64,000 nt of DNA, from contig JAFECK010000005.1 in assembly GCA_018242185.1 (NCBI GenBank), forward strand, positions 42,373 through 106,372, read 5' to 3'. A model generated the notes under the pieces. The model did no database searches, was not told the DNA's origin, and saw only the letters and a program-made list of their open reading frames with translations. Origin of the DNA: Pseudomonadota bacterium. GTDB taxonomy: Bacteria; Pseudomonadota; Alphaproteobacteria; Rickettsiales; Midichloriaceae. Of this stretch, positions 24,653 through 48,804 are shown in pieces; positions within the stretch are counted from its first letter, which is position 1, and each line of letters begins with the position of its first letter. Both the position numbers and the translations under genes were made by a program.

Positions 24653-25159
24653 ATGCGTAAGGTTTATTTTGCAGGTGCGTACATAAGTGGGGGTGTTGTA
24701 TTTTCACTGTTTGGATGTAACATGACGCTTTCTTCGATCTTGGCTGGCAACTTGACTTCTGAGCAAACAATGCAGCTTAAGCAGCTATCTTGGGGGCAAT
24801 CCTATTATGATGTGCTAGACGCAGTCACGCCAACGTCCGCCTCTTCTCTAGAACCAACAGTTGTTGGATTGGCAGCCACTACCGCTGTACTCGCGGTGTT
24901 ATCTTTGAGTGCTTTAGCGTATGGAAGCTATAATAAAAATAATTTACTTAGAACAGCCGGAATTCTTGGAATAGGAATAACGGCAGCGTTTTCTTCTGCA
25001 GCTGCTTCTGCTTTCCAATATGAGTCTTTGTTTGCAAACCATACCTTGCAACAGGTCATAGAAAGCGCCATGATAGCGACAGTTGTGTTGATAGCGTTCT
25101 CTATAGCATGTTATATGTGTGCATGGAGATCAGAAATTCAGCAAGAAGCCAACCCGTAG
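24653..25159 (+). CDS. small 4-TM membrane protein, family member 3
   Basis: 168-aa ORF with the same layout as 9694-10789 (TPTSASSLEPTVVGLAATTA, AASAFQYESLFANHTL). Its 3' end overlaps the 3' end of the porin gene by 30 nt. Confidence 0.55.
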   Translation: MRKVYFAGAYISGGVVFSLFGCNMTLSSILAGNLTSEQTMQLKQLSWGQSYYDVLDAVTPTSASSLEPTVVGLAATTAVLAVLSLSALAYGSYNKNNLLRTAGILGIGITAAFSSAAASAFQYESLFANHTLQQVIESAMIATVVLIAFSIACYMCAWRSEIQQEANP

Positions 25160-26655: not shown

Positions 26656-29600
26656 TTACACCTTATCTATAAGGCTCACATATTCCCCGCTGGAGCTGGC
26701 GCTGATATCTATCCGTTTGTTTATCGCTTCATTTAGAAATGAGTATTCTATGGTCGAGAGTATACCGCTTAACAAGTGCGTAGTGAGCATGATGGCTAGA
26801 GTTATCTCTGGCGAGGAAAGTATAGTACTGCTTACATACTTGGGCAATAAAGTCTCAGCTGCGTATTGCAGTAAATACTGCTGAGCTACGTAAGCAAAGC
26901 CAGAGACTGCACCTGCTGCCATACCCGAAAGTAAGGTAGTATACTCGCCCTCAAATTCTCGCAACGCGACCTGCTTATCATCCTGGCTAGAAGTCTGCAT
27001 TATGCCACCAAATACCGCGCCTAGAACCATACCTATGCTCATGTAGACCAGTAAAGTTTGATAATTAAACGCACCGAGCACATTTTGCGATAGTAGGGAA
27101 GGAAGAGAGAAAGCCGTACTCTCTGCAATACCTGCTTGCACCAACACATCGGTAATAAATGATGGCACAAACAACATGGTAGAGCTCATGCACAGCATAA
27201 AGAAGACCCGATTACCTGCTATAGCAGCACGGGTCTTCTTATCCTCAGAGTCAGTAAATACGGCGGCTATGCCTATAAAGATAGCGTTACCAAGCAGATC
27301 AGTAAATTGATATGGCGCTGTAAGTACTCGAAAAAACAGATTACTCTGCTTTGTAGCAGTATCTTCATAAGCCACTCTCACATTAGCCTCACGAGCCTTC
27401 AGATACTTGGCTAGGCGCACCTCTACATTCGTGTCAAGCTGAGATTTTATATTCTGAGGTAAGTCTTCTATCGCTTGCGTAACCAATCGCTTCCATTCTC
27501 CAGCAGCATATTCCGCAGCCATTTCTCGATCCGCAGCAGTATCGGCCTGGAAATAACGCGCAAGCTGATCCTGTAAGACCCTGTTCACAAATGATAATAG
27601 CTTGAGCGGTGACTCATAATCTGCAGGTTGCGATCCCTTTTGTTGCAAGCTTTTTTCTTTTATATCACTAAGTCTGTTTAAGAGATGAAATGTCTCAAAT
27701 TGGAGATATTGCCAAATCTGATCTGCTAGCCTTGATTTATCTCTAGATAGACGGCTTTTTATAGAATTACGTGCCCCCAATTCTCTAACGTCTTCTACTT
27801 TAACAAGCTTAGGACGGTAGTGCTTGACCTGACCAGGAGCTTTCTGTGCCTCATACTTATTAAGCGCATCTGCTATTTCTGTATTAATCAAGATAAAGCC
27901 AGCGCGGCCTTCTTCAAAACGACCATGCGTCCTGCCGGCACCTTGTACAGCTCCACTCTTAGTAATACGCTTGGCGCTAAGCATTATAGTGGTAACACGG
28001 GTGGTGATTGGGTTGCGGTTAGAGTCTAGCAATGGTTTGTTATCAGCACCTAATACTAATGCCGGCTTGCTATCAGTACCGCGGGCCATTGTGCCTTCTG
28101 TACCTATGGTAATAACGCCCAACTGTGACATCTGCTTGACCACCTTTGCGTGTAGATCTTTTTGCTTGTCCCTAGATTTGCGGCGCCCTAGCGCCTCTCG
28201 TGCGTTTTTATAATTCTTATCATCATAAGAGAGCAGCTGCCCATTCTCATCGAGATCTTTCACCATACCCTTAGTGTAAGTTTGTATCGCTGGGAATAAT
28301 TTTTTTAAGGCAGGATTGTCATCTATCCTAGTTTTCAGAGCATTGTACAGATCCTTGACCTGTTTTTCCGTCTCACATATCAGGTTCAAGGGCTCCCCTC
28401 GACCTGTATAGTTCAAAGGCTGCTGATTAATCTGCATAGCAGTCTGAATGAGTGTATCTATTTGTTCTTCTACATTATTGACTAGCAATATGTGGTTATT
28501 TTTGCGGTATGCTGGGGCTTTTTGATGTGCCGGCACCTCAAGGTTTTCAAACAATCCTTTAACCCGCCATTCCTCATGAGTTGGATACTTGATTAGCGTA
28601 TATTTCTGATGCGCTATAAACTCCTGCTCATCGTATTCATTGCCCATGGTGGCGCTGTAGCCTTCACAAGTCTCAAAACCAAAATCTTCTAACGCAGCGA
28701 TATCGGGTATACTAGCCACTCCAAGCAGCTCTTCCTGTGCTGAACTCTTAGCTATGGTATTGCTCAAAGGCTCAATAACAAAGTGACGCCTCTGACCCTC
28801 AGGCTTATCTCGCTCTGCTTCATTAGCCCATAGATGCCAGAATTGCTGCATTCCTCGATCGTAAATAATGCTACGATTAGACTTATTAAAAGTGCCATTA
28901 ACAATAGCAACTTTGCGGTATTGCGTCACTATTGTTGGACTATGTCCCATATCATTCCAGTCATATTCTGGCACGTCGTAGTAGTCTACCCCTGCCTCCC
29001 ACCTGTTCATAACGTGCTTAGAATCGATCGCTGCCTCCACTAGTGAGTGGATAGCTTCCCGATCTAACTTGCCAGCAGCAGCTATCTTGAGCTCTTGTCT
29101 AGAATCCGCTTCATCCGTGGTGCACAGCATTGCCTTAGCTTCTCTAACAAGAGTCAAGTCGTCCTCAAGGCTATCCTTAATCTTTGGGTCGTTAGTCGCG
29201 CGTACGCTGGTATATAATGCTGCAATTTTGCGGTCTAGGAAAAGGAGTAGGTTATGGTGGTTTTGCTTGGCAGGAAAGCTTCTCTGTGGTTGCTCTTTAT
29301 ATGGAGCATATAAAAGCTGCATGCTGTGTGCATCGCTTTGCTCCCTCTCCACCATCTCAACAATGAGGTATAGCAACCTCTCCCACGCTGCGGTGCTCTT
29401 AGTAGAAACTTCACGTTTTGCTAGACGCTGTTTTACTGGTGAATGCGCATCTCTATCTATCTCATCCACCTTTAGCCTAATACGCATAGGTTTGCCATCA
29501 TATGCAAACCTTTCGCCTTTAGCTTTTTGATTTAGGCGCCACGTAATGACATCTGAGAGTGTACCATAGTGGATGTCATAATGTCGAAATTCTTCCATAG

Positions 29601-32600
29601 TAGTCCCAAGCGGCGTAATCGGAGTATTGGAAGATTTTAATTCCAGATAGTTATGGAATTTTCTTTGCCCTAAAGCGTCGCGAGAAGCCAATTCATAAGT
29701 TGAAGTGGATACCACAACCTTGGCACCAAGCAGGGCATCAAAGGCATCACTCAGCGCTATAGTTATAGTTTTACCTTGCCCGGTATTAAAGCCGTGGAAG
29801 ATGTTCTTTTTGTCATTCAGCTTGGAGTATAATGGAGCGATCAGCTGTAACGGTCGTGGGAATTGACCGATAGTGCGGTGCCTAGCCACTGCTATATAAG
29901 CAAGCAGCGTAGTAATGGTGTCAGGGTTCTTTTCGATAGCGCAAGCCTTTTTCGCTGCTTCTAGGCCTGTAACGAAATCTGCATCATTCTTCTTCATAAC
30001 GTTGGTTGTAACCTCAGTTATGATACGATCCCAACCGTTGATCAGAGTCTCTATACTGTCTTCATTTAGTGGCTGCCAGGCAGTATCGGCATTCTCTCTG
30101 ATCAATATTTTATTTAGCTTGGCTCGCAATTTTATTTTATCATCTGCTAAATTCTGCTTCTGATCTGCACCGCTGGCCCAGCCGAACTTAATCTTATTAG
30201 CGGTGCTACTGAAAAATTCCGTGGATTTCCCCTCACAATACTCTTTATTTAACTGAACATTTTCTATTATATCTCTTTTGATTTGGAGCGAGTGACAGAT
30301 AGGCGGGGTCACCAATTTTTCCAATGCAGGTAGTGCTTTTTTATTAAGATTTGTGATTTTATCCACGAATTGCGGTAACAATGCTATTATTTCAGCTATA
30401 GATAATTTGGTTGTTTCCGAAGCGTCAGGAGTATCAGGGGTTTTCTCAGGGTTGGCAAACTCATTGCGCAAAATCTGATCTAGAATTCTGATAATTTGTA
30501 GATTGGTTTTTTGGTTATAATTTCTAGAGACTTTATCTAGCAATAAGCACATAAACTCGGGAGCAGTAGGCTGCTTGTTTTTACCCAAATAACGCTCCAC
30601 TGAGAAGACTAAGTTCATTACTAGATCTGGCGCCTCACTCAGCATATCCATAAAGCACTGCAAGGGCTTTGTTGAATCTGTAATCTGCAGTTCATCAGTA
30701 AACTGAGGTTTAGTAAATGCCGCAACATATTTGACCAGCAACATCTTATCTTGCTGTCTGCATACTCTTTCCAATATCTCAAAAAGCTTCAGTGGTATAT
30801 GTTCTATCTTCTGCTGAATAGCTGTACTGGAGGAATTAGAAGAGTTTGAGCTATTCGGCTCTTGTTTTTTATCATAACGGCGTAGATCCCGCAATTGATA
30901 TAGGTTATATGCAGCTTGCACTAGATCGCTAAAGTTATAACCTTTAATTTCTTGGGCAAAGGTAGCAAACTTCATTACTGCACTGGAAAAACGCTGGAAA
31001 TCTGCTTTATATAGATCGTGATCATACTGTTGCTCTAGCTTTCCATCCTTGTTTACGAACATCTTTGAAGGCGTTGCCCACATGTGCGCTGTTCTCGCCA
31101 TTTTTTCCACCAGGTTGCTAGGGGTCATCATACGCTCTGGTTTCTTGAACCGCTGCATTATGCGCATAGCCTTTATCGTATTCCATACAAATTCTGTGCC
31201 GGAAGCATGCTGCAAATCAGAATCATAACTTCGTTTTATCAACTCGATATTACGCATATGCCCCTGCATATTCATAGGCTGCAGTCGGATTAACGTAGCT
31301 AGTTTACCCCTTATTTGTGTATCTATTTCATCCATAGTAGTATGAACACGCAAAAAGCTATATGCATCACCTTGCACCAGCTCCCCTAGCATGGTAGGGA
31401 TATAGGCTTTAGCATTATCACCTAACTTCTCAGCCCTACCGCTCTCATGGTGCAGAACTGTCTGGTGCGGCATAAAGCAAAGTAGGTAATGGCGCAATAC
31501 TATAGCAGCGATACGCTGTTTCTCTAGCTCAGTGGCGCCCCATGTGTCAATCGTGGAGACAGCCGTAGCTATGATACTACGCACTTCTTGTTTTGCTTCC
31601 ATAGCAGTTTCTATTGCTGTCTTAGAGGAAGATGAAGAAGATAACAGCTGTTTCCACTGCTTATAGCTTTGGCCTGCTATTGTTATCTCTGGTATCATAC
31701 CAGCCAATAATTCATCCCAAGAGATCTGCTCGGAGATTAAATTAGTCTTGAGCAGTAGATCTGGGAATAGGCTTGTCATCGCTTTCTTGCACTCTTCAAA
31801 GGTAACTTTGCCCTTCAAAGCATCACAAAACTGTGCATACGGCACTTGCTTAAAGTTTTGCACTTGCTCCCAGTCTATGTCGTCTAACCATAGATTGACG
31901 TGCTGCATGGTTTGTAGAGCTGTGCTATTTTGCAGCATCTGTGTTCTATCCATATTGTGATCAAAGCCGGATAAATCCCGTTTCCAATAACGTGGATCTT
32001 TGGGCAAAGTGTCGTTGATACACAGTGCGCATAACGAGAGAAAATGCTTATTGTTATATTGGTCATTCATCAAGTTAGCTTTAGCACGATCTTTAGTAAC
32101 TTGATCCGGCTCCAAGTGTTGACCAGCCCAATATGGATCGACTGGGTAGTGCATATCCCCATTACGCAATGGAAATCCATTCATTATAGCGGGAATAGAG
32201 TGATCATAGCGCTTGGCGGCAAACCATATAGCAAGGCATCTAGATGGTAAGCTAAGATAGGTTATTTCTTCAAAATGCATCTTCAGCATATACCGTGTGC
32301 GTTGCAAGGTATTTTTCATACTCTTCATCAAAGAAGCGCCGGTTATTCCTGAATTCTTCAAATGATCAACTAAGGCACCAGAAGCTTCGCTCTTGATATC
32401 CATGGTATCCAGTGCTCTTTTGATATTGACACGCGTCACCCCTGGTGCTTCGCTGAGTTCCTTTAAGGCTTGCATGAAGCGCTCAAACTCTGCCTTCACT
32501 TCAGCCCTTGCTTCATCAGTAATGCTATGGCTATCATATTTGAGGTTGCTCTGGAAACTCATCGCATATTCCATGAAGAATTCCAGCACCCTGTCTACGT

Positions 32601-35600
32601 ACTCTTGCTTGAAGCCTGTGATAATCCTATAATACCAACGCCTGCTCCATTCAATATCTGCGGGTGGGATGAGCTTTTCATCAGTTGTATTTAACCTGCG
32701 GGAATATAGATTCCGCCAATATGGACCGTTGTATAGATGACGCCAATCACTGAGTCTAGTATCCTTACCATAGTACGCTAGTTCACCTACGTCTGGTAGC
32801 GGTATATTAGCCCCTATTTTATATCTCCCTATGCCTGAATCAGGCGCTAAGTTCATCTCAGGCGTAATGATTATAGGATCCCATATGCCGTGTAGTAATT
32901 CGTTGCTCTTCGATTCTGCGGTGCCCTCATATGTTTTAGCTAAGTCTAGCATATAAACATCACCATGCGGAGCCAAAGAACAACGCATTGGGTGTATAAC
33001 TAGGGGATCCTTAGTGGAACGATTACTGTTCATGATCTCCACTTGCTTCTCTATGGTAGTAGCATTAGGACCAACTGCTTCTAAAGCTTCCTTATATTCA
33101 GGCTCAGCATTTAAGGCGATAAGTTGTTGTTCTAGTATCTGCGGGCCTTTAACGGCTGCATGGTCGAGGATACGGTATAGCCTATAAAGGTCGGTCTGCA
33201 CATTACCACTAACGCCATCCAGGATGATGCGACGCCTGCCATGCACATCAAGATCTGTGGTACGTCGTACTAAAGTTTGTTGTAACTTACTAACCAATGC
33301 ATTATCTCGATTGCTATGAGTATCATTAGTCATCTCTTTAAAGCGTATCCAGAAATACTCGAATGCTTTCATCGTAGTCTGTACATCTGTATTACCGGTA
33401 TAACTTGATCTCGCGTCACCCGCAACAGCAGGGCCGCTAGCGCTATTTAGTACTGCTTCTAAGAACTGCAGTTTAACCTCTAGTTTCCTAATTTCCTGCG
33501 GAGTGCTATCCTTAACTGTTCCCTGGCTTTTAGAGGAAGATGGCTGCTTGGATGCATCAGAAACACTCACCTGCTTAATTTTTTTTAGGTCTTTGATTAA
33601 GTAGCTGAGTTTCTCCAACATATCAAAACCTGCGAGATAGCTCCAGTCCTGGCGTGAGGTATTGCGGCCGATACAGTTAATTAATGCATTGTAGATATTG
33701 CTATCCAGCTCTCTTATAGCTAGTAAATGTGAGGCAAATCCTGCTATAGCTTCCATGCCATATACTGCAACGATGGATAGGATGTTATGGCGCACTTTAA
33801 CCCTGCCGCACACATCATGTATAACTTCACGTATACGGTTATTTTGATGACCAACAGGCAACTTATCATATAGTGCATCGATAAGAGGGTGTGCTGGCGG
33901 ATTAGCCTGTAAGCCACGGTAGTAGTTGATGTGCTGATCGAGTGGATCAGTACCTGGAATAAATCCAGCGTGAGAAATTGTGTTTGGCCGTTTCTGATCT
34001 TGCCTCAATGGTGCTGGATCATAAAGTGGAGGCGCGTATGTATTGACTGCTCGGTAGTGCGCAGCCAGTGATTGCTGCTTAAATTGATCTGTGTGTCGCG
34101 TGTTAGCTAAAGGATCAATGCGTAACCCATTTTCGTTAGCCTCTGTATCTTGTTTGTATTGCTTAAGATTCCAGCTTAATGTGCGGATTTTATGTGGGGT
34201 ATTGGCTGCCTCGCTTGGACGGGCTTTATATTGATGGTTTGCTGCAGTGTATTTCTCGACACGAAATCCAAGCGGTAAGTTATGGTAATCTATCCCGCCT
34301 TTGAAAACACAGTAATTATTGCAGGCTAGCGTTAGTACAGATTCACTTATATACCAAGAGTTTATTCCCATCTCTAACGTGTATTTATGCATGAACATTT
34401 GCCAGCTGATACCAGCAATGTCATCATCATTCCCCAACACATCTACGTGCACAGGAGCAGCGCCAGTCAACCCAGACATAAATCTCACATATTGCCGGGC
34501 AACATAGTTATAGGCCTTCTTGGCGAGCACTGCATCTGCCCGGTTATTAGATTGCATGATGGTTCGCAGCTGCGTCATCAAGTTAAAAGGCTGACCCGTG
34601 CTGCAGTCTTGCTTTATTTGATCGAAACACGTTATACCTAGTGGCAGAGAATCACAATATTCTGTAAATATACTGACAATCAGGGTGTGGGTAGCCTTAT
34701 TTAACCTTTCTCCTTTACTTGAACCCCCAACAATACCTAAGTGCGTTACAAAGATATTACTTTTTTCATGCCCTTGCGTAAGCGCCCAACTTTTTTCATC
34801 TGGGTTTGCAGTTAGCAGAGTAGGATCCCACTCAGCAAAGCTACCTATAGTTTGTGATTCTTGCCCATTTGGTCTTTCTGTATGGATTATTGGTATACCA
34901 AGAAGCTCATCAAGCCTATAGACTTTATTTGTTTCTGCATCACCCATATCGGCGTCTCCTGGACCTGATAAGGCGGTTTTGCTCTGATATTGATGTTGCA
35001 ACTGATGCTCTGCCTGATGTTCTATAGAGAAGTTTTGTTGACTCTCCACCTGTATATTCATCTGCCCCACAGTTTCTACAGAGACATCAACATTTACTTC
35101 TAACTTCGCATTGGTAATGCCGGCTCGGTTTACGGCATCTTCCATGTATTGACCCACCACTTGTGGACCATGATCACCATCATTTTGTATCTTAGCTTCT
35201 GATGTATTCTCTAGATTAATATCTACCTTTCTTTCAAACCATAGCTGTAATGCTATCCTTCTGCTAGGCCATATCGTCTGTTGCTGCACTATACCATTGG
35301 CATCATCTAAGCAAATGGCCACATATAGCTTGCCCAAGTAGTGATGGCGTGTATGTGATTCATCTATCTTCTGCAACCGTTGATTTAATTCTGCATACTG
35401 TTGTTGATCTGTACAATGTAGCTCTAGAGACTGAGTACCACGGTCAACTATATGCTTAAGGAACGCTTCGAAAGTGCAGTCATTGCCATATCTATAAGGA
35501 TCAAAGGGGTGACGCGTAGGAAGTTTAGCTTTTATTACCTCCTCATTTAGGATAATCATTCCTGGTTCGATATTACGTAATATCAAAGACTGAGGCCATA

Positions 35601-36060: not shown

Positions 36061-36176
36061 TCTTCATTTCTATAAATTCATTATCGGCCAAACAATATAG
36101 CGTAGATTTTTATATACCCCACCTCATTTTCCTTAGCTTATAAGCAAATATTTGATATTACCTATGACAGGCACCA

Positions 36177-36205
36177 ATTATACCGTAATATCACAAAAAT
36201 ATCAA
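36177..36205 (-). promoter_or_regulatory. candidate sigma70 promoter of giant gene 1 (TTGATA-17-TATAAT)
   Basis: On the minus strand TTGATA (36205-36200) is followed by a 17-nt spacer and TATAAT (36182-36177), about 115 nt upstream of the ATG at 36060. It lies inside a ~60-bp block conserved upstream of giant gene 2. Confidence 0.55.
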
Positions 36206-36251
36206 CACCGTATGTGTCGTTTGCGCTTCGTTCTGGAATAGGCGTATCGAT

Positions 36252-36674
36252 ATGTACAACGCTTGCCTTCACATGATGCAACAGTTACAGGGCACGCACC
36301 TGAAGAGATGTTCTAACACAAATAGAATTATTAATGCAGAATCTGCGTCACCTGTGTCACCTACCCCCAAGCAACTCCCTGTAGCAGTGCTACCAATGAC
36401 GATTACTCCTCTGCAACGTAGAATCAGGATTAATAACTTGCACTTATCCAAGGATTATTATCAGATGCTTTATGACGAACGTGCTGGTATATATCAGTAT
36501 GATGCTGGGATGAGCCAGGATGATGCTGAAGCCAAAGCTAGAAATGACGTGTTGAACCTATGGTTGGAGCATGAGCACGTCCTCGTCGGACATCAAGGGC
36601 CGCTGTCCGTGCAGTTCAAGAAGGATAATTACTCACGGGGTGTGCAGCAGCTGCAGAAATACGGGTCCTGGTGA
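36252..36674 (+). CDS. small conserved protein with ERAGIYQYD motif, copy 1
   Basis: 140-aa ORF whose C-terminal ~85 aa are paralogous to 50276-50536 (ERAGIYQYDA, ARNDVLNLWLEHE, F.KDNY.RG.Q.LQKYG.W). The true start may be the ATG at 36396 (MTITPLQ). Confidence 0.65.
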   Translation: MYNACLHMMQQLQGTHLKRCSNTNRIINAESASPVSPTPKQLPVAVLPMTITPLQRRIRINNLHLSKDYYQMLYDERAGIYQYDAGMSQDDAEAKARNDVLNLWLEHEHVLVGHQGPLSVQFKKDNYSRGVQQLQKYGSW

Positions 36675-36887
36675 ATATGCAAAGCTAAGCCTGTAGCATG
36701 CTTCAGCTTGTAGCCTTAGTAAAACTCTAAAGAATAGCTGCTACAGACGCATATGCCATTTACTTCACTTTAAAAGGCGCTAGAGAAGAAAGATGGTTGT
36801 TATGCGGGCCCCCAAGCAAAAATCATTTACTCTCTTCTGTGGCCTCCGTAGCGCAAATAAATCATAATGATGGTACTCATGACACGG

Positions 36888-39800
36888 TCATCCTTCTATA
36901 AGGCTCGCAGTGTTTTCACCAACGCCAGCGCTCATATGCTTGTTTATAGTCTCATTTAGGAATGAGTACTCTATAGTCGATAATATACCGCTTATCAGGT
37001 GTGTGGCGAGCAGAATAGCCAGCGTTGCCTCAGGTGATGACAGAATAGTGCTGGTTGCATATTTGGTTAATAGAATTTCGGTGGCGTATTGCAATGAATA
37101 CCGCTGTGCTGCATATAGCAGGCCAGATATGGCACCAGACGTCACACCGGAAAACAATGCTGAGTGAGATTCGCCAAATTGTCTAAGCGCGATTTGCTGC
37201 TTATCTCGGCTCGAAGACTGCAGTAGCCCACCAAATGTGGCGCCAACTATCATACCAATACCCATATATACCAGCATTGTCTGATATTCGAACGCACCAA
37301 GCACATAATGCGACAGCGGAGATGGCAGGGCTTTCACAGCAAGATCAGTAACATTAGCCTGCTCTAAGACACCAGTAACCAGGGATGGCACAAACATCAT
37401 AGTCGAGCTCATAAGGAGCATAAAAAACGTGCGGTTACCCACCATGGCAACACGCTTTTGCGTCGCTTTGGACTTGGTAATGACGCTTGCTGTACTCATG
37501 AAAATAGCATTGCTAGCCACATCAATAGCATAGTACGGCGCGGTAATTGCTTTAATAAAAGTACTATCCTTCTTCTGAGGGATGCTCTTGCTCTCAGGAA
37601 GTACAGGCTGAACAACATGCCGGGCCGCTAGATGTCGATCAAGGCGCTCTTTTATGCCGTCTATACGAATCTCTGGTCGTAGAGGTATTCCGGGCGCCTG
37701 GTTAACCAATCTAGCCCACTCCCCAGCTGCATATTGGACAAATTGCTCGTTAGTGGCATCAGGGTTATCCTGGAAGTACCTAGAAAGCTTGACATGCAGC
37801 AACCTAGTAACAAATGGCAACAGGTCCAGAGCCTGACTATAATTTATAGGCTTCCCACTGCCTCCTTCTTGCCGCTCTGCCGCCTTGTCGGCCAATTCAC
37901 GCACTGCACCTATGAGGCGGAAGGTCTCATACTGTAGGTATCTCCACACTCTATCTGGCAATCTCGATGCTTCACGAGCTTGGCGGTTTTTAGCAGCATT
38001 ACGCGCTGCCAAGTCTACAACGTCAGGCACACTAATGTTATTCTCATCATAGTGACGTTTTTGTACCTTTTGCTCTTCGTGTTCATTCAAGCTATTTGCT
38101 ACATCTGAGCCAATCAGGATAAACCCGGCGCGCCCACCCTTGAAACGACCGTGTGTTCGTCCTAGCGACTGGGTAGCAGCGGGCCTGGTTATGCTCTTAG
38201 AGCTCAGTACTATGGTGGTGAGGTTCGTCGTCATTGGTGCTCTGGTCACCGGATCTTGCAGCTGCTGCCCCGTGTCATTTAAAATCGGTATAGACTTAGC
38301 ATCAACACCACGCGCCATGGTGCCGATTGTACCTATGGTGATTACCCCTAGATGCGACATTTGCTTTACTACCTTTGCATGCAGGTCCTTCTGCTTATTG
38401 GTATTCTTCTCCAGTCCCAGAGCTTCGCGGGCCTTCTTGTAATTCTCATAGTCATAGGAGTATAGCCGTCCATCTTTAAGCTCATGAACCATGCCTTTAG
38501 TGTACGTCTGTAGAGCTGGAAATAGTGTTCTTAGCTGCGGGTTATCCCTTAGCTTCTCTGCAAGTTTCGCGTATAGAGCCCTAACCTCCGCTTCTGTCTC
38601 GCATAGCAAGTTCAGAGGTTGCGCCTGCTTCGTGAGTGCGATGGTTGGCTTGTTGATCTCTATGGCGGTCTGTATTAACGCGTCTACTTGAGCGTCTAAG
38701 TCGTCCACTATAAGCACATGGCCGTTCTTATTCTTGGGATCCGCATCCCTATGGGCTTCCACATCAAGGTCAGCAAAAAGCTCCTTAGATTCCCACTCCT
38801 CATGTGTAGGGTACTTGATCAGCGTGAACTTCTGGTTCGCTATAAACTCCTGTTGATCGTGTTCGTTACCCATAGTTGCGCTGTAGCCTTCACAAGTCTC
38901 GAAACCAAAATCTTCTAGTGCAGCTAACTCTTCAATGCTCTGTACCCCCAGCAGCTCCTCCTGCGAGCTACTCATAGCGATAGTATCGCTTAGGTCATCG
39001 ATTACAAAGTGGCGTGGTTGTGCACCAGGTTGAGCCTGCTCCTGTGCATTAGCTCGTAGATGCAAGAACTGCTGCATACTGCGGCCATATACAATGCTAC
39101 GGCTAGCTTTACTGAATATGCCATCTACAATCGAAACCTTGCGGTGTTGTGCGGACATAACTGGGCTACGACCAAGGTCGTTCCAGTTATATTCCGGCAC
39201 ATCATAGTAATCCACACCCTGTTTCCAATGTGCCAGAGCTGCTTTTGAGTCAACAGCTGCTTCCACTAATGAGTGGATCGTGTCCCTGTCCAACAAGCCT
39301 TTAGCAGCGTTTTCCAGCTCTTTCTCCGGTCTACTATCCGCCTTAGGACAAAGCATGCCTTTAGCCCTTTTTACCAAGGCCAGGTCATCCTCAAGCTTGA
39401 TCTTATCTCGTGGATCGACTGCGGCCTCCACCTCTGCGCTCAATTTCTCTTTCTTGTGCTCCAGGAAGACTAGCAGATTGTGGTGGTTATCTTCCGCAGT
39501 AAAGCCCTGCTGTGGGTCTCTACTGTAAGGTTCATATAGTAGCTGCCACAGATTTTGCTCGCTCTTCTCAGTATCCACCATCTCTACAATCAGCTCTAGC
39601 AGCCTCTGCCACACTGCGGCACTCTTGCCAGCTTCTCCACCATTGCTAAGCTCCTGCCGTTTTGCTAATCGTTGCTTGATAGGTGAATGCGCGTCGCGGT
39701 CCATCTCATCCGCTTTTAGCCTGATACGCATATCCTTAAAGCTCGCATTTTCTGACTGCTGTTTCATGCGCCATAGAATTATATCAGGGAGCGTGCCATA

Positions 39801-42800
39801 ATGAATGTTATACTGCTTGAAATCTTCCATGGTGGTTGCTAGAGGCGTAATTGGCGTATTATTGGACTGAAGCCCGAGGTATGCATGGAATTTTCTCTGG
39901 CTCACTGCATCCCTTGAAGCTAAGTCATAAGTTGAGGTGGAAATGATCAACTTAGCTCCAAGCAGCGCATCAACGGCATCGTTTATGGCAATCGCTATAG
40001 TTTTACCTGACCCAGTCTTCATGCCATGGAAAATATTTTGCTCACCTTTCGCTCGCGTTTTGGAATAAAGCACGCTAACCAGCTGAATTGGCCTTGGGAA
40101 TTCGCCAGTAGTACGGTATCTGCCAACCGCTATGTAGGCAAGCAGGTTAGCGAGATTACTAGGATCTTGCTTGTAAAGTTCGACGGTCTCCTTTAGGCCA
40201 TCAGCAAACTGCTTATCGGTGTATGAGATAAGCCCATTCTGGACCTTAAGGATAGCCTCACTCCAACCATTAGCTAAGGCGTTAATAGTATTATTATCTA
40301 GCTGTTGCCACTGGGTATCCCCTGGTTTTTTAACCTGCACCTGCGCAAGTTTCTCCCGCAGCTTGAGCATATCTTCTTGCATTCGTGCGTCGGCATTTTT
40401 ATTCTTTGACCAGCCGAATACGAGGTTTCTGCCAGCATCCTGGAAGAATGCCTTGGACTTCTCCTCGCAATACTCTTTGGATAACTCCTGGCGCTCAAGC
40501 AGGTCACGCTTTAAGTCAATAGAGTGACAAATAGGCTTAGTTACTAGCCTTTCCAACGCAGTAAGTGTGTCATTATCTAAACCCGCAATTCTAGCGATAA
40601 ATGTATTTAACAAATTTATATCAGACATCTGCAATCGTTGTAGGGCAGGCGCGCCTTCGCTTTTATCAGGGTTAGCAAACTTATTGCGTAGGATTTGATC
40701 AGCTATGCGTATTAGGTGCACATGCACAGCAGGATTTTTTTGGCTTATACTACTAATCAAGTCTACGAACACTTGTGGTGCCGGCTTCTGCTGATTTTTA
40801 CCCAGACGGCGATCCAACGCAAAGACCAGATTCATCACTAAATCTGGGGCCGTTTTTAGCAGGTTCATTACGCACTCAAGAGAGCTTCCCATGCTGGATT
40901 GTTGTGCTTTACTAGCATCCTTAGCTGGGCTGAATGCGGCTATATACTTCATCAGCAGCATCTTATCCTGTTGCCTGCACACTCGCTCTAATACTTCAAA
41001 AAGCTGCAGCGGGATATGCGCTATTTCTCTTTTCGCTGCAATAACAGAAGAACTAGAGCTTGAATTGCTATCCGCAGTAACGCTCTTATCATAACGCCTC
41101 ACGTCACGTAGCTGGTACAGGTTCAATGCCGCCTGCGTAAGCTCACTAAAGTTAAATCCTTTAATCTCCTGGGCGAAGGTGGCAAACTTCATCACCGTGC
41201 TTAAAAAGAGCCGTAAATCGTTTTTGTATAAGTCATGATTATACCTCTGTACACGGTTTCTACCGCTACCACTTACTTCGGATGGCGTCGCCCACAAATC
41301 AGCATTATAGGCCATGGTCCGCATTAGGTTATCAGGCGTCTGCTCTCTACGAGGGTGCTTAAACGGCTGCTTAATTTTCATCGCCCCTAGGATCTGCAGC
41401 AAGAACTCTATGCCTTGGGCATGCTCCATGTCAGTATCATAACTGCTTCTAATCAGCTCAATGCTACGCATGTGATGTTGCATACCCATAGGCTGTAGCC
41501 TAACTAAAGTAGCTAGCTTAGCCCTGATCTGCGCGTCTATCTCATCTACGCTATTGTCACCGATGAACTGGTAGGCATCACCCCCGGTAAGCGCCTCTAG
41601 CATGTCATCGACATAGCGAGTAGCTTTGCTATCTAGCCTGTCTGCGCGGCCAGTTTCATGGTTTCTGACTACCTGGCGTGGTAGGAAATGTAGCAGATAA
41701 TGATGCAGCACTAGGGCTGATATGCGCTTCTTTTCTTGATCATCAGCGCCCCATTCGCTCGTTGTGACAAATGCATCAGAAACCATGCTGCGTATGCCCT
41801 GTTTCCCCGTTAACTTCCCGATAACCTCTGGCGACTGTTCTTGCTTCCATTGTGCATAGCCTTTGCCTACTATAGTCACCGCCGGCTGTTTATTCGCTAG
41901 CAGCTCATCCCATGAAATTTGATCCAAGATCAGGTCAGCTTTTCTGATAAGATTCGGGAATAGGCGATCCATCTCCTTTCTGCATGCTTCACTTGTAGTC
42001 TTCCCTTTTAAAGCCTTACAAAGCTCCTGATAGTCAACCTGATGAAAGTTAACCACGTTTTCCCAGTCGATCTCATCCAGCCATTCATTCACATACTTTA
42101 TGGTTCGCAAAGCGGCGCTATTCTTCAGTATATCCGCGGGACTCACGGTAGCATCATGGATCGACAAATCTTTTTTCCACTCGCGTGGATCCTTCGGTAA
42201 GCTGCTATTAGTACAGAGTATGCATAAGGTAAGTAGATCTTCGTTTTTATACCGATCGTAAAGCAGCATATCAGCCCCGGTCGGCTCAACTACTTGGTTA
42301 TTCCAAAATGCGTTATCTGGGTACCGGAAGCCGCTGATGTCATGAGAAAAATCCGTAAGCAAAGGAGGGATCGAGCTATCACAGCGGTGAGCAGCAAACC
42401 ATATAGCCCTACACCTTGATGCAGCGTGCCTTGCGTCAATGTATTTATTGTCCAGTTTAACCCGATAGCGTGTGTGCAACAGCTCTTCCTGCAAGCGCCC
42501 CATAAAATAGGTGCCGCTAGTTTTATGCTTTTTCGCATCATCCATGTCACTCTCATATAGCACCATTGCTACACCAGAGCCAGAGAGTCCAATTTGGGCA
42601 TTTGCTAATTTTACACTCAACCTTGCGGTGTATTCCTTCAAGGTGTCTATCAAGCGCTCAAATTCTGCCTGCACTGCAGTCTTATCTTGCTCACGTATAC
42701 TTGCGCTATCGTACTTGAGAATCAGTTGAAACTGGCGTAAATAGTCAGAGAAAAACTGTAATACCTCATCAGCGTACTCTGGTTGGAACTCGGTGAGGAT

Positions 42801-45800
42801 CCTATAATACTGGCGTCTACTCCATTCAATATCTTTAGGTGCGGTCACCTTATCATCATTGCTGTTTGGTTCCCTGGCATACAGTGCACGCCAATGCGCT
42901 CCTGTATACAATAGGCTCCGATTTGCAGAGTCGGCATATTTATCATATGTATTATAGTAGGTAAGTTCGCCTATCTCTGGCCTCGCTACGTTATGCGGCC
43001 CTGTATAACGCCCAATTGCTGCGCCAGATGCCAGGCTCATCTCCGGAGTAATGATGATAGGATCCCATATATCGTGTAGGAATGCGGTTTGCTTGTATTC
43101 CTCAGAGCCCTCGCAAGTTTTTGCCAAATCCATGGCATAGACCGCGCTATGCTGTGCCAATGAGCATTTTAGAGAATGGTAACTGTTTAGTTGTACTGCT
43201 GCGACCCTAGCATTCACAAACTTCAAGTGCTCCTCTATAGTATTGGCGTTGGGGCCAGCTGCCTCCAGTGCTGCCTTGTATTCAGGTTCAGCATTCAGGG
43301 CGACGATTTGCTGCATAAGCATCTCAGGGCTTTTGCTAGCCGCATGGTCGAGGATGCGATATAGCCTATACAGGTCCGTCTGCGTATTGCCGCTCACGCC
43401 GTCTAGGATGATGCAACGGCCTTTTGCGCTAGATCCAGTGACCCTACGTACCAACTCTTCCTGTAGCTCTGCCACGAATTCGTTATTCTGATTGCCAGGA
43501 ATATCGCCTGTCATCGCCTGGACACGCTCCCAGAAATACTCGAACGCCTTGATCGTGGTATCCAGGTCTGTGTTACCGGTGTGGCTGCTTCTCGCCTCGC
43601 CATCGATTGCAGGTCCGCTAGCGCTGTTGAGCACTGCTTCCAGGAACTGCAACTTGACTTTTAGTTTTCTGGCTTCTAACGGGCTTACCTCGTCAGTAGT
43701 GGCTGAAGTAGTAGGATCTCCTTCCTTTGGCTGTACATACTCGCGTTTCAATACCTCTAGGTTGCTAGCCAGCCATTTTAGCTTGTCTAACATCTCCTTA
43801 GTTGCAAGATAACTCCAATCTGGGCGAGAAGTGTTATAGCGGATACAATGAATTAGCGCTCGGTATGTCTTGTTATCAGGCGTGCCTTTATTCAGTTCGC
43901 GAATGGCAAGTAGGTGGGTCGCAATCCCCGCCAGCGCGTCAATGCCATATACAGCGACAATAGATAGGATATTATAATTAATCTTCTCAGTGCCGCACAT
44001 ATCCTCGATAACCGCACGAACACTGTCATTTTTATAGGTGTCCGGCAGTTTATCATATAACACATCAACCAAAGGTTGAGGTGGTAAATTCTGCTGCAGG
44101 CCTCGGTAGTAGTTGATGTATTGGTCTAGTGGGTCATCACCTGCGATCAACCCAGCCTTAGAGATAACATCTGGTCTACCTGGATCTTTTGGTAACTCTT
44201 CCCTAGCACTGCTGGCTACATCAGCGTTTTGAGCGCGATAGTGCATAGCCAGAGATTGCTGTTTGAAGGGGTCTTGATGCGTAGTATTGGCAAGAGGGTC
44301 TATCCGCAGCTTGTTTTGATTATTTTCCTTATCTTCTTTGTAATGATCCGAACGCCAGGCTATTGAATAGACGATGTCATCCTTATTGCTCCAGCTTCCA
44401 TTTCGCGCGATATGGTCATGACGCCGCTGGTCAGCATGTTCGGTGGGGGTAGCCTTGTAGATGTAATAAGGAACCTTGCATTTATATACACGTGTGCCCA
44501 GTGGGAGATTATTATAATCTATCCCACCCTTGAAGAGTTGGTAATTATGGCAGGCCAGCATCAATATTGAGTCATCGATATGCCAGGAGTTGAGGCCACC
44601 CTTTGCGGTATATTGCTGCATCAGCGTCTGCCAGCTGATACCGGTGATCTCATCATCATTCCCCAGCACCTCAACATGCACTGATGCTGCACCAGTCAAT
44701 CCAGAGATAAACCGCACGTATTGGCGGGCTACATAGCTATAAGCTTGCTTACTCAAGGTAGGGTTGCTTAAGCTACGAACATTCTTTATCTCTTCCATTA
44801 AATCAAAGCTTTCTCCTGCCTTACAGCGTGCTTGAAGTGCATCAAACGACCTTTCATTTTCCGGCAGAGAACGGCAGTATTCTTCAAATATAGAGGCTAC
44901 CAAGACATGTATAGCCCTGTTGATCTGTTTTACCTTGTAAATCTTACGGTTGGTGGGATTACGCTCCCCATCGTCATATCGGTTAGAGCCGGCATATAGC
45001 ATAGCAGCCTTAGCTCTTGGCTCCCTTGTAAGCATGCCCGGATCCCAGGTATCATACGTGCCTACGGTTAGCGCCTCTTGGTTGTTGGCTCGCTCGGTGA
45101 CGGATACCGGTATACCAAGGAGCTCATCTAGCCTATAGGCGTCACTATGACCTATAATGCCCCTATCTTCTACTGCTGGGCCATTGAGGTTGAGATTGCT
45201 TTGATATTGCTGTTGCAACTGCTTGTCTACATGCGTCTCTATAGTGATTTCGCGCTGCGCTTGTACCTGCTTTGTTACTTCCACTTGTGCTTCTACGTTT
45301 ACTGCAACCTCTAGCTCAGCCTTAGTATGCCCTGTTCTAGGTGTGGCATCCTCTTTATAATGCTCGACTACCTTTCTTGGCGCACTCATGCTAGTGCTAG
45401 CTGACACTCCAACATGCACAGGCTGCCATTGCTGCATGCTAACTTTTTTCTGCGGCCAAATGGTTTGCTCTGTAACCACCCCATTAACATCATCCAAACA
45501 AGCGACCACGTATAGCTTTCCAGATAGCTGATAAGCTCCTAATCTACGGTTAAGCTCTTCATAATGCGCCACATCTTTACAATGCAATTCCAGGGATTGC
45601 ACGCCAAACCCGTCAAGCTCAGCCAGGAACTCCTCTAAGGTTGTGAGGGTCTGGAGCTTCTTTTCTATGTACTTGGCTTGCTGTCGTTTCTCATCTCCAG
45701 GCTTATCTTGATATTTAAAGATATCCAGCGGCGCTCCTTCCTCGTCATCCCCGGTTTTCTTTGACTCAGCGCTACTCCCTGCTGCCTGTGCGTCAGCGTT

Positions 45801-46220
45801 TTTCCCTTCTTGTACTAGTCGCTCTATTTCAGGTCTTGCGGCATCTATTGTGGCTTGTTTAACATCGCTGGTTAACAGAGCATCAATGTGGACATTGCGT
45901 AATACTAAAGACTGCATTCGTACAATGTGTGAGCGCAGTTTTTCGAAGGATTTTAGGATAAAGCCTAGTTTATAAAACTCATCAACTGCATCAACTCCTC
46001 CTAAAAATACCCGCCCTTTTTGGGTATCTACCTGCCCAAGATTCAATTCTATTGTTACAGACCCAGTCCATGTACTACCAAATCCAGTACCACGTATCGA
46101 ACTTATATATCCGTTGGCAGATATACCGTAATAACTCGTATCACCCAGTACATCTTCAACAACGCTGTTAACCTCTTGTGTCAGAGAGAGCGAATTATCA
46201 TCATGCAGGATTACTTTCAT
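36888..46220 (-). CDS. giant protein 2 (3110 aa): SecA-like DEAD motor plus C-terminal multi-TM block
   Basis: Uninterrupted 9333-nt ORF, a diverged paralog of 26656-36060. Motifs: MKTGSGKTIA, LIISTSTYDLASRDA, YNIHYGT, ADEMDRDAHSP, TMARGVDA, GRTHGRFKGGRAG, plus a homologous C-terminal TM block. Confidence 0.85.
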   Translation of the reverse strand: MKVILHDDNSLSLTQEVNSVVEDVLGDTSYYGISANGYISSIRGTGFGSTWTGSVTIELNLGQVDTQKGRVFLGGVDAVDEFYKLGFILKSFEKLRSHIVRMQSLVLRNVHIDALLTSDVKQATIDAARPEIERLVQEGKNADAQAAGSSAESKKTGDDEEGAPLDIFKYQDKPGDEKRQQAKYIEKKLQTLTTLEEFLAELDGFGVQSLELHCKDVAHYEELNRRLGAYQLSGKLYVVACLDDVNGVVTEQTIWPQKKVSMQQWQPVHVGVSASTSMSAPRKVVEHYKEDATPRTGHTKAELEVAVNVEAQVEVTKQVQAQREITIETHVDKQLQQQYQSNLNLNGPAVEDRGIIGHSDAYRLDELLGIPVSVTERANNQEALTVGTYDTWDPGMLTREPRAKAAMLYAGSNRYDDGERNPTNRKIYKVKQINRAIHVLVASIFEEYCRSLPENERSFDALQARCKAGESFDLMEEIKNVRSLSNPTLSKQAYSYVARQYVRFISGLTGAASVHVEVLGNDDEITGISWQTLMQQYTAKGGLNSWHIDDSILMLACHNYQLFKGGIDYNNLPLGTRVYKCKVPYYIYKATPTEHADQRRHDHIARNGSWSNKDDIVYSIAWRSDHYKEDKENNQNKLRIDPLANTTHQDPFKQQSLAMHYRAQNADVASSAREELPKDPGRPDVISKAGLIAGDDPLDQYINYYRGLQQNLPPQPLVDVLYDKLPDTYKNDSVRAVIEDMCGTEKINYNILSIVAVYGIDALAGIATHLLAIRELNKGTPDNKTYRALIHCIRYNTSRPDWSYLATKEMLDKLKWLASNLEVLKREYVQPKEGDPTTSATTDEVSPLEARKLKVKLQFLEAVLNSASGPAIDGEARSSHTGNTDLDTTIKAFEYFWERVQAMTGDIPGNQNNEFVAELQEELVRRVTGSSAKGRCIILDGVSGNTQTDLYRLYRILDHAASKSPEMLMQQIVALNAEPEYKAALEAAGPNANTIEEHLKFVNARVAAVQLNSYHSLKCSLAQHSAVYAMDLAKTCEGSEEYKQTAFLHDIWDPIIITPEMSLASGAAIGRYTGPHNVARPEIGELTYYNTYDKYADSANRSLLYTGAHWRALYAREPNSNDDKVTAPKDIEWSRRQYYRILTEFQPEYADEVLQFFSDYLRQFQLILKYDSASIREQDKTAVQAEFERLIDTLKEYTARLSVKLANAQIGLSGSGVAMVLYESDMDDAKKHKTSGTYFMGRLQEELLHTRYRVKLDNKYIDARHAASRCRAIWFAAHRCDSSIPPLLTDFSHDISGFRYPDNAFWNNQVVEPTGADMLLYDRYKNEDLLTLCILCTNSSLPKDPREWKKDLSIHDATVSPADILKNSAALRTIKYVNEWLDEIDWENVVNFHQVDYQELCKALKGKTTSEACRKEMDRLFPNLIRKADLILDQISWDELLANKQPAVTIVGKGYAQWKQEQSPEVIGKLTGKQGIRSMVSDAFVTTSEWGADDQEKKRISALVLHHYLLHFLPRQVVRNHETGRADRLDSKATRYVDDMLEALTGGDAYQFIGDNSVDEIDAQIRAKLATLVRLQPMGMQHHMRSIELIRSSYDTDMEHAQGIEFLLQILGAMKIKQPFKHPRREQTPDNLMRTMAYNADLWATPSEVSGSGRNRVQRYNHDLYKNDLRLFLSTVMKFATFAQEIKGFNFSELTQAALNLYQLRDVRRYDKSVTADSNSSSSSSVIAAKREIAHIPLQLFEVLERVCRQQDKMLLMKYIAAFSPAKDASKAQQSSMGSSLECVMNLLKTAPDLVMNLVFALDRRLGKNQQKPAPQVFVDLISSISQKNPAVHVHLIRIADQILRNKFANPDKSEGAPALQRLQMSDINLLNTFIARIAGLDNDTLTALERLVTKPICHSIDLKRDLLERQELSKEYCEEKSKAFFQDAGRNLVFGWSKNKNADARMQEDMLKLREKLAQVQVKKPGDTQWQQLDNNTINALANGWSEAILKVQNGLISYTDKQFADGLKETVELYKQDPSNLANLLAYIAVGRYRTTGEFPRPIQLVSVLYSKTRAKGEQNIFHGMKTGSGKTIAIAINDAVDALLGAKLIISTSTYDLASRDAVSQRKFHAYLGLQSNNTPITPLATTMEDFKQYNIHYGTLPDIILWRMKQQSENASFKDMRIRLKADEMDRDAHSPIKQRLAKRQELSNGGEAGKSAAVWQRLLELIVEMVDTEKSEQNLWQLLYEPYSRDPQQGFTAEDNHHNLLVFLEHKKEKLSAEVEAAVDPRDKIKLEDDLALVKRAKGMLCPKADSRPEKELENAAKGLLDRDTIHSLVEAAVDSKAALAHWKQGVDYYDVPEYNWNDLGRSPVMSAQHRKVSIVDGIFSKASRSIVYGRSMQQFLHLRANAQEQAQPGAQPRHFVIDDLSDTIAMSSSQEELLGVQSIEELAALEDFGFETCEGYSATMGNEHDQQEFIANQKFTLIKYPTHEEWESKELFADLDVEAHRDADPKNKNGHVLIVDDLDAQVDALIQTAIEINKPTIALTKQAQPLNLLCETEAEVRALYAKLAEKLRDNPQLRTLFPALQTYTKGMVHELKDGRLYSYDYENYKKAREALGLEKNTNKQKDLHAKVVKQMSHLGVITIGTIGTMARGVDAKSIPILNDTGQQLQDPVTRAPMTTNLTTIVLSSKSITRPAATQSLGRTHGRFKGGRAGFILIGSDVANSLNEHEEQKVQKRHYDENNISVPDVVDLAARNAAKNRQAREASRLPDRVWRYLQYETFRLIGAVRELADKAAERQEGGSGKPINYSQALDLLPFVTRLLHVKLSRYFQDNPDATNEQFVQYAAGEWARLVNQAPGIPLRPEIRIDGIKERLDRHLAARHVVQPVLPESKSIPQKKDSTFIKAITAPYYAIDVASNAIFMSTASVITKSKATQKRVAMVGNRTFFMLLMSSTMMFVPSLVTGVLEQANVTDLAVKALPSPLSHYVLGAFEYQTMLVYMGIGMIVGATFGGLLQSSSRDKQQIALRQFGESHSALFSGVTSGAISGLLYAAQRYSLQYATEILLTKYATSTILSSPEATLAILLATHLISGILSTIEYSFLNETINKHMSAGVGENTASLIEG

Positions 46221-46286: not shown

Positions 46287-46315
46287 GGTATACCATAATA
46301 TCGCGAAAATATCAA
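46287..46315 (-). promoter_or_regulatory. candidate sigma70 promoter of giant gene 2 (TTGATA-17-TATACC)
   Basis: On the minus strand TTGATA (46315-46310) is followed by a 17-nt spacer and TATACC (46292-46287), about 65 nt upstream of the ATG at 46220. It is homologous to the element at 36177-36205. Confidence 0.45.
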
Positions 46316-46401
46316 CAGTGCGTGCGCAGTTTGGTGCAATATAGCTGAACATGCAGTATAATATGGGTGCAATGCTGAAGTGAACCCACGGAGGAGTAGG
46401 T

Positions 46402-46987: not shown

Positions 46988-47042
46988 ATTTTGATCATTT
47001 TTGATCGAATTGGATACATGCTGCGGCACCAGTGCGGCACCA
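46988..47042. repeat. two pairs of short tandem direct repeats between att scar and int start
   Basis: ATTTTGATC (46988-46996) is followed by ATTTTTGATC (46997-47006). TGCGGCACCA (47022-47031) is followed by TGCGGCACCA (47033-47042). Confidence 0.6.
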
Positions 47043-48800: not shown

Positions 48801-48804
48801 GGCT

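Follow-up and report, generated by a model that had tools for sequence, protein, structure and literature searches.

The DNA analyzed here is a 64,000-nt stretch of contig JAFECK010000005.1, referred to as the window throughout, and it contains two giant genes, G1 and G2, which carry the GenBank source label 'MAG: Proteobacteria bacterium' (MAG, metagenome-assembled genome) and JSS50_ locus tags. An earlier reading made without database searches (hereafter, the sequence-only reading) had described a tandem pair of diverged giant paralogs filling about 29% of the window, and this description was reproduced. G1 and G2 are uninterrupted open reading frames (ORFs) of 9405 and 9333 nt on the minus strand, both begin with ATG, their starts are 10160 nt apart, and together they occupy 18738 of the 64000 nt (29.3%). 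In both proteins, the C-terminal third is predicted to form a SecA-type motor followed by a hydrophobic tail, whereas the preceding ~2000 residues match no known domain. The coordinates of these features and of the neighboring genes are summarized in Table 1.

Table 1. Positions of the two giant genes, their predicted parts and the neighboring features in the window
Feature	Position	Strand	Basis or detail
G1, giant gene, 3134 aa (MBS0236028.1, JSS50_01675)	26656..36060	minus	ORF list, translation, exact database match
G1 N-terminal family-specific region, aa 1-1989	30094..36060	minus	no known domain
G1 predicted SecA-type ATPase, aa ~2007-2740: NBD1, PPXD-like insertion (aa ~2217-2444), NBD1 end with SAT motif, NBD2	27841..30042	minus	Pfam, motifs, AlphaFold model, Foldseek
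G1 Walker A GQGKT, aa 2094-2098	29767..29781	minus
G1 DExD motif DEID, aa 2199-2202	29455..29466	minus	aligns to SecA DEVD
G1 helical scaffold-like region, aa ~2741-2895, with 52-residue helix	27376..27840	minus	AlphaFold model
G1 hydrophobic tail, aa ~2905-3125, 4-5 predicted transmembrane helices	26686..27348	minus	hydropathy peaks
Promoter-like element upstream of G1, TTGATA-17-TATAAT	36179..36223	minus	11/12 consensus matches
G2, giant gene, 3110 aa (MBS0236030.1, JSS50_01685), paralog of G1	36888..46220	minus	51% identity to G1 over 2978 aa
G2 predicted SecA-type ATPase, aa ~1980-2718	38067..40283	minus	TGSGKT, DEMD, SAT, TMARGVD, GRTHGR motifs
G2 hydrophobic tail, aa ~2882-3105	36906..37577	minus	hydropathy
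Matching element upstream of G2	46289..46333	minus	78% identity over 45 nt, core 30/33 identical
dnaA	23159-24565
Porin_4 gene adjoining G1	25130-26395	minus
Other Porin_4 gene	8240-9571	minus
140-aa ORF between G1 and G2	36252-36674	plus
Decaying mobile island upstream of G2	47032-50191, 55203-55850
Copy of the 140-aa ORF inside the island	50099-50533	plus	41% identical, 3 in-frame stops
1368-aa island protein	50820-54926	minus

The two proteins were aligned by BLASTP over residues 196-3132 of G1 and 194-3109 of G2, with 1523 of 2978 positions being identical, 67% positives and 3% gaps, and a global MAFFT alignment gave an identity of 53%. The common blocks LQFLEAVLNSASGPA, RLYRILDHAA, and MKFATFAQEIKG.NFS, quoted in the sequence-only reading, were found in both translations. 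When calculated per 200-codon window, the identity ranged from 36% in the first window up to 65% in the motor region. It was 36-42% over the first ~480 aa of G1, 56-61% at aa 486-1095, 58-65% in the motor, 40% in the linker after the motor, and 60% in the tail, which is consistent with the by-eye estimate of half to two-thirds in the sequence-only reading. The N-terminal ~200 aa had also been regarded as barely alignable. This is accurate for about residues 25-195 but not for the whole N-terminus, because the paralogs share a conserved stretch of ~25 residues at the very start (M[RK][IV]I[LW][YH]...[LF]SL[IT]..).

An open frame of 3100 codons at 43-47% GC cannot be attributed to chance, and the GC content by codon position follows the order GC1 > GC3 > GC2 in both genes, as in the housekeeping genes of the window. 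G2 is richer in GC than G1 (GC3 of 0.48 vs 0.415; overall GC of 0.473 vs 0.433), and its GC3 exceeds that of every other window gene examined. From the codon alignment of G1 and G2 (Nei-Gojobori method), the proportions of synonymous and nonsynonymous differences, pS and pN, were determined as 0.77 and 0.31, respectively, and the nonsynonymous divergence (dN) was 0.41. The synonymous divergence (dS) was undefined overall because pS was at or above the saturation limit of 0.75, and selection is reported as pN vs pS since the saturated dS gave no ratio in most windows. In the five windows with computable dS, dS was 1.9-2.6 and omega (dN/dS) was 0.14-0.29, not near 1. With pS saturated while pN was 0.31, G1 and G2 are therefore old copies under purifying selection. 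The duplication is ancient, and over 9.3 kb neither copy has lost its open frame or its constraint. The alignment and dN/dS comparison suggested in the sequence-only reading thus agreed with its expectation that two intact 9-kb frames imply selection.

Moreover, a 45-nt promoter-like element is located upstream of each gene, and it has been retained in both despite the saturated synonymous sites in the genes. This element could be a shared promoter or operator candidate, and the conserved near-consensus site before each gene suggests that each has its own, similarly controlled promoter. The element also holds the direct repeat TGATATT...TGATATT.

SecA-like C-terminal third and N-terminal region

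SecA is among the best-understood molecular motors and normally operates docked on SecYEG. In G1 and G2, SecA_DEAD was the only Pfam domain detected (aa 2014-2171 of G1, E 5e-10; G2, E 1e-8), with 39.6 bits against a gathering cut-off of 24.6. NCBIfam returned weak SecA models only, PHROGs gave a single weak SecA-like match, and the profile searches against PDB sequences matched SecA only, in NBD1, with E 5e-5 for a 2-sequence profile and E 3e-16 for an 8-sequence profile. When isolated sub-segments (PPXD region, NBD2, scaffold, and tail) were searched against Pfam, only sub-threshold noise was obtained, with no P-loop_SecA or SecA_SW.

The order of the motifs was compared by local alignment of G1 to an ordinary SecA. 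The motifs were colinear, and the sequence identity to SecA was 12-15%. GQGKT of G1 corresponded to the SecA Walker A GEGKT, DEID to motif II DEVD, GYSATMG to motif III GMTGTA, LIKYPTHEE to VMVIPTNRP in the strand after motif III, ITIGTEGTMARGTD to motif V ITIATNMAGRGTD, and GRTHGRFEEGRAG to motif VI GRSGRQGDPG. The catalytic residues are kept: G2094, G2096, and K2097 of Walker A and D2199 and E2200 of DExD are invariant across 8 family members, and T2098 is invariant between G1 and G2. As in SecA, NBD1 contains an insertion of ~230 aa between motifs II and III. Its signature VAIVNGTFNKSNRSIIYDRGMQQ, IVN..NK..RS..Y..GMQQ, aligned to the SecA counterpart, the general form being IV(D/N)..G(R/K)...R..S.G(L/M)(H/Q)Q plus (T/S)(G/A)T, and the Pfam SecA_PP_bind model scored no match on this PPXD-like insertion. 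In NBD2, ITIGTEGTMARGTD and QGAGRTHGRFEEGRAG were colinear with SecA motifs V and VI (RGTD and GRxGR).

The structure was predicted with AlphaFold from an alignment of 30 family and superfamily sequences, as the model from the two paralogs was unusable (pLDDT 33). The C-terminal model had a mean pLDDT of 81 and a pTM of 0.76, with high confidence at model residues 10-900, equivalent to aa 2000-2890 of G1. The pLDDT was mostly 80-97 across the ATPase, and NBD2 was modeled as an alpha/beta domain with a pLDDT of 85-95. A 52-residue helix directly after NBD2 (model residues 766-817, pLDDT ~86-92), followed by four shorter helices, resembles the scaffold helix of SecA. When the model was compared with the PDB using Foldseek, ranks 1-35 were all SecA or SecA2 (E 1.7e-19 to 1.6e-7), the alignments of ~980 columns covered entire SecA chains, and the first non-SecA match was MDA5 with E 3e-5. 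Against substrate-engaged SecA (5eul_A), the target-normalized TM-score was 0.64, and against the SecA DEAD motor in isolation (3bxz) it was 0.73-0.74. As modeled, the C-terminal part is a whole SecA fold (NBD1-PPXD-NBD2-scaffold helix), which extends beyond a DEAD core.

Within the last ~230 residues, 4-5 hydrophobic segments were identified, and they are present in every full-length family member. This tail occupies the place of the lipid- and zinc-binding C-terminus of SecA, and no SEC-C motif was found at the C-terminus. The layout also departs from that of SecA, which comprises ~800-1000 aa with NBD1 at the N-terminus, as NBD1 begins only at about residue 2007. The SecA-like core and the transmembrane tail recognized in the sequence-only reading were both recovered by Pfam SecA_DEAD, the AlphaFold model, Foldseek, and hydropathy. 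When the hydropathy of the tail was compared with that of inner-membrane proteins encoded in the window, no difference was seen (Mann-Whitney p = 0.28). As the tail resembles inner-membrane proteins in this respect, ordinary insertion in the bacterial membrane is the default expectation, and hydrophobicity was dropped as an argument for a secreted membrane effector.

In the case of the N-terminal ~2000 aa, no match was obtained in the Pfam, NCBIfam, or PDB-sequence profile searches, as anticipated by the sequence-only reading, which had recognized no domain there. In segment-wise jackhmmer searches, only aa 887-985 and 1375-1470 of G1 were recognizable in distant relatives, and the remaining N-terminal segments were recognizable only among the paralogs of the same MAG. 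The family-invariant residues of this region are mostly hydrophobic or aromatic, which hints at a structural rather than an enzymatic role. No glycosyltransferase, protease, repeat, beta-barrel, or toxin domain was found in Pfam, NCBIfam, PADLOC, PHROGs, or the PDB profile searches. Known giant toxins and adhesins (large clostridial toxin/LifA-Efa1, RTX, autotransporters, and polymorphic toxins) were considered and rejected, as the profile searches returned no such domain.

Family members and genomic surroundings

Relatives were collected by an exhaustive HMMER search of 1.84 billion representative proteins using aa 1990-3134 as the query, which retrieved 145 proteins at E <= 1e-3, nine of them at E <= 1e-30. 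A word-index protein search retrieved the two proteins of the window and one partial paralog and missed P0004-P0008. The GTDB genome pattern scan yielded only an ordinary 874-aa SecA (L001), and the metagenome scan gave no matches. Two further copies are encoded in the same MAG: P0004 on another contig (3191 aa, MBS0236217.1, JSS50_02635), with 46% identity to G1 over 3216 aligned positions, and the partial P0148 (JSS50_02300, at least 1514 aa), which is the fourth copy. G1 and G2 thus belong to a same-genome expansion of at least four copies, which the sequence-only reading had not noted.

The full-length distant relatives number five: P0005-P0008 (2324-2554 aa) and P0010 (1756 aa). They are colinear, at 21-25% identity, and all carry the hydrophobic tail; P0009, P0011, and P0015 are family fragments. 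The distant relatives come from five assemblies with compact genomes, where their neighbors are housekeeping genes, and genes for ankyrin-repeat proteins and a Rickettsia-type 17-kDa antigen are close by. P0008 (L004) and P0010 (L013) share the downstream genes for DUF4385, entericidin, MscS, and a 4Fe-4S ferredoxin, and this common synteny indicates vertical inheritance at a fixed chromosomal site. On Logan contig SRR14932654_699039 (L002), P0005 lies exactly between two 325-aa zinc-dependent alcohol dehydrogenase genes (8966-9943 and 17398-18375), an arrangement that would result from insertion into a tandem pair or from duplication of the flank.

The ~130 further HMMER matches cover the motor only, and many of them are 2300-3500 aa long and carry the motor in their final third. 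Among 15 superfamily proteins scanned with Pfam, SecA_DEAD was found in all 15, P-loop_SecA in 7, SecA_PP_bind in 2, and ankyrin repeats in 1. In this last protein, P0149 (3772 aa), many ankyrin repeats are fused to the SecA motor; it was found in the ENA sample that also contains P0008. In a subgroup of the superfamily, the C-terminal segment is strongly hydrophobic; the others have no such segment. One member, WP_058461170.1, is a 2513-aa hypothetical protein of Legionella adelaidensis (NZ_LR134418.1; L011, 4432-11973) encoded between bioC and phhA/letA/uvrC. Another, P0014 (L008), is located two genes from a 499-aa Arf/Ras/Roc GTPase and DrrA_P4M protein (3706-5205), a combination that is typical of Legionella-type effector architecture. 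Taken together, G1 and G2 represent a rare family in Rickettsiales/Holosporales-like genomes, which is nested within a broader superfamily of intracellular bacteria.

The DnaA of the host showed 65% identity to that of another MAG, 46% to Holosporaceae bacterium 'Namur', 41% to the Rickettsiales endosymbiont of Peranema, and 38% to Midichloria, which places the host as a deep Holosporales/Rickettsiales-like alphaproteobacterium. Such a bacterium may plausibly live inside other cells. The apparently intracellular bacterium of the sequence-only reading is likewise supported as likely, given these DnaA relatives and the relatives of the giant proteins in ankyrin-rich compact genomes.

The pair is located two genes from dnaA, in the order dnaA, a small membrane ORF, and a Porin_4 gene, and the housekeeping genes ddl, IleRS, class I LysRS, and alr are nearby. 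Of the two Porin_4 genes in the window, the one adjoining G1 is weakly similar to the Wolbachia WD0745-type porin. Directly upstream of G2, a decaying mobile island contains an integrase arm-binding fragment, two overlapping TraI/DUF7146 fragments, and an IS1595 transposase, and it is the remains of an integrative or conjugative element. The tRNA scan detected none in the window; thus, there is no tRNA-linked island boundary. Rfam gave no match in the window, and PADLOC gave none for G1 or G2.

Two other ORFs of this region were noted. The 1368-aa island protein has a weak N-terminal Ulp1/Peptidase_C48-like match (E 4e-4); its other recognizable parts are an AAA_21/AriA-like ATPase and an AriB/DUF4435-like region (PADLOC AriAB, E 3e-14). 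On this reading, a PARIS-like defence ATPase would be joined to a SUMO-protease-like domain of eukaryotic type. The 140-aa ORF between G1 and G2 lies on the opposite strand, matches no Pfam, PHROG, or PADLOC family, and has a copy interrupted by stops inside the island; it may be a mobile-element remnant that landed between the paralogs.

Proposed working and alternative explanations

G1 and G2 are most likely membrane-tethered polypeptide-handling ATPases. The reading that we prefer, although tentatively, is that they are functional members of a rare family of giant SecA-derived proteins, anchored by their tails and acting at the bacterial inner membrane. The inner membrane was taken as the default site because the tail is as hydrophobic as inner-membrane proteins and because no secretion signal or system is in evidence. 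In this case, the protein would stay N-in, tethered by its tail, with the ATPase on the side where ATP is available. ATP-driven movements of the SecA-type clamp and motor would grip and move an unfolded polypeptide at the membrane. This polypeptide might be a dedicated client or a part of the protein's own N-terminal region, and the housekeeping Sec system would operate alongside. With their divergent N-terminal parts, the paralogs could have different clients or targets. The membrane that holds the tail, the substrate, and the direction of transport are what we infer here.

Several points weigh against action at the inner membrane as a SecA-derived ATPase. The AlphaFold confidence for the transmembrane tail was low to moderate (pLDDT 45-75), with the tail modeled as long helices, and the two-helix finger and wing domain of SecA were not confirmed. 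The N-terminal region shows no signal peptide or other export signal. At the loci examined, family members have no conserved neighbor that encodes a partner channel, a chaperone, or a secretion component, and no canonical secA was found within the window. The source is an uncultured MAG. Furthermore, the family and superfamily occur in intracellular-looking bacteria (with ankyrin proteins, the DrrA_P4M neighbor, and Legionella) and include one ankyrin fusion, which fits a host-directed effector at least equally.

Such an effector would be exported, for example by a type IV system, insert its C-terminal helices in a host or vacuolar membrane, and act on host proteins or membranes through the ATPase and the variable N-terminus. 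We consider this possible but rather doubtful. It comes close behind the inner-membrane reading, as the expansion is lineage-specific, one relative is an ankyrin fusion, and the superfamily includes a Legionella member and one beside a DrrA_P4M protein. Effector function is also compatible with an N-terminus that diverges fastest, the lack of a signal peptide, and the occurrence of family members in compact ankyrin-rich genomes. P0149, which joins ankyrin repeats to a SecA motor, the superfamily member near the Arf/Ras and DrrA_P4M protein, and the 2513-aa protein of Legionella adelaidensis argue in the same direction, as do the SecA-like domains in Amoebophilus effectors (PMC3482391) and the 'SecA DEAD-like' entry among Legionella eukaryote-like genes (PMC4256840). 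However, no secretion system or secretion signal was identified, translocation has been demonstrated for no superfamily member, and a membrane protein of 3100 aa would be an unusually large secretion substrate. The tail hydropathy, being equal to that of ordinary inner-membrane proteins, favors retention in the bacterium.

A bolder, and in our view improbable, explanation is that G1 and G2 are self-contained Sec-independent translocases or unfoldases. The SecA motor would be fused to its own membrane domain, perhaps an oligomeric conduit, and the variable N-terminal platform of ~2000 aa would select the cargo. The machine might work in the symbiont envelope, or in a host membrane where it would pull host or bacterial polypeptides across the vacuolar boundary.

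It is very unlikely that the genes belong to a mobile element or defence system and encode a helicase or translocase acting on nucleic acids, such as a 'polyvalent' conjugative-element giant that happens to score with SecA_DEAD. This idea draws on the position of the pair next to the decaying island with its integrase fragment, TraI/DUF7146 fragments, and IS1595, on a weak Pfam DEAD match in G2 (17.6 bits, under the cut-off of 26), and on the small ORF between the genes, whose pseudogene copy lies inside the island. The structural comparison speaks against it, since Foldseek gave E 1e-19 for SecA vs E 3e-5 or worse for nucleic-acid helicases; the best non-SecA structures (MDA5, Pol theta helicase, DinG, and CshA) reached only E 3e-5 to 7e-4 with TM-scores of 0.2-0.4. 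The PPXD-type insertion and scaffold helix are present, PADLOC gave no match, the codon composition is like that of host genes, and the relatives are located amid housekeeping genes with synteny conserved in two genomes. Finally, the notion of non-functional relics or assembly or annotation artefacts, which the visibly decaying island and the origin from a MAG might suggest, is effectively refuted by two unbroken frames of > 9.3 kb, a pN far below pS, ATPase motifs kept across paralogs and distant relatives, and a third full-length paralog on another contig.

The fusion of a SecA fold to a private membrane anchor and a 2000-residue region is a new arrangement. That a seemingly intracellular bacterium maintains four or more diverged copies, with a combined coding length of about 33 kb, points to an important and probably host-related function. 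If a Sec-independent translocase were true in either version, it would represent a new way of moving proteins between intracellular bacteria and their hosts. Once a role is established for any single member, hundreds of the largest 'hypothetical' genes of symbionts and pathogens would gain an annotation, and the cultivable Legionella relative offers a tractable experimental entry point.

Comparison with known systems

SecA and SecA2 (1tf5 and 5eul of B. subtilis; SecA2 4uaq of M. tuberculosis) were the best and only strong structural matches. They share with G1 and G2 the order NBD1, PPXD insertion, NBD2, and long scaffold helix, together with colinear Walker A, DExD, (S/T)(A/G)T, RGTD, and GRxxR motifs. 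Unlike SecA, the motor of G1 and G2 sits behind ~2000 unrelated residues in a protein of ~3100 aa and is fused directly to a hydrophobic tail of 4-5 helices, with no SEC-C zinc motif. In addition, SecA is universal and single-copy, whereas the giant gene is multi-copy and lineage-specific.

Secondary SecA_DEAD proteins, which occur beside the canonical SecA and have no SecA_SW by Pfam, are encoded in a conserved neighborhood of three genes related to type I secretion systems (Kamneva et al. 2015, PMC4452313). G1, G2, and the relatives examined differ from this class, as the surroundings of G1, of G2, and of the relatives in L002-L006 and L013 contain no ABC exporter, HlyD, or TolC-like genes.

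The giants of Omnitrophota and Actinobacteria described by West-Roberts et al. combine transmembrane regions with a divergent SecA_DEAD without scaffold or wing, and self-export has been proposed for them (bioRxiv 10.1101/2023.11.21.568195; also 10.64898/2026.06.07.730766). These proteins are 30,000-85,000 aa long, contain many enzymatic and adhesion domains with transmembrane anchors before the SecA domains, and belong to free-living or predatory hosts, often near type II secretion genes (10.1101/2023.11.21.568195). G1 and G2 resemble them in great size, a divergent SecA_DEAD, the absence of Pfam SecA_SW, transmembrane segments located toward the C-terminus, and an N-terminus largely without annotation; some of those giants also carry a PP_bind domain. 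Compared by description, G1 and G2 are 10-25 times smaller, have the tail after the motor, contain no enzyme or adhesin domain, and belong to a Holosporales/Rickettsiales-like bacterium.

A further comparable group is formed by the SecA-motor giants of Legionellales and other intracellular bacteria. These are proteins 2300-3500 aa long that have the motor in their final third, weak but significant relatedness in the motor, in some cases a C-terminal hydrophobic segment, and, save for ankyrin repeats in 1 of the 15 scanned, no Pfam domain other than SecA or helicase ones. They differ from G1 and G2 in that only the motor aligns reliably, the motifs are nearer to canonical SecA (GxTGTAG and GRSGR), many have no transmembrane tail, and the N-terminal regions are not detectably related, except for weak matches in two proteins. 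SecA-like helicase-related domains have been listed among Amoebophilus effectors (PMC3482391), and lfa2470 of L. fallonii appears as 'SecA DEAD-like' in a list of eukaryote-like genes (PMC4256840). We found no earlier publication on this alphaproteobacterial family. The sequence-only reading had proposed machinery of an undescribed type, which was overstated, because giant SecA_DEAD proteins with transmembrane regions (10.1101/2023.11.21.568195) and the Amoebophilus and L. fallonii proteins are precedents in silico. G1 and G2 are a fresh variation on a giant SecA_DEAD theme already noted in silico, and not a categorically new system.

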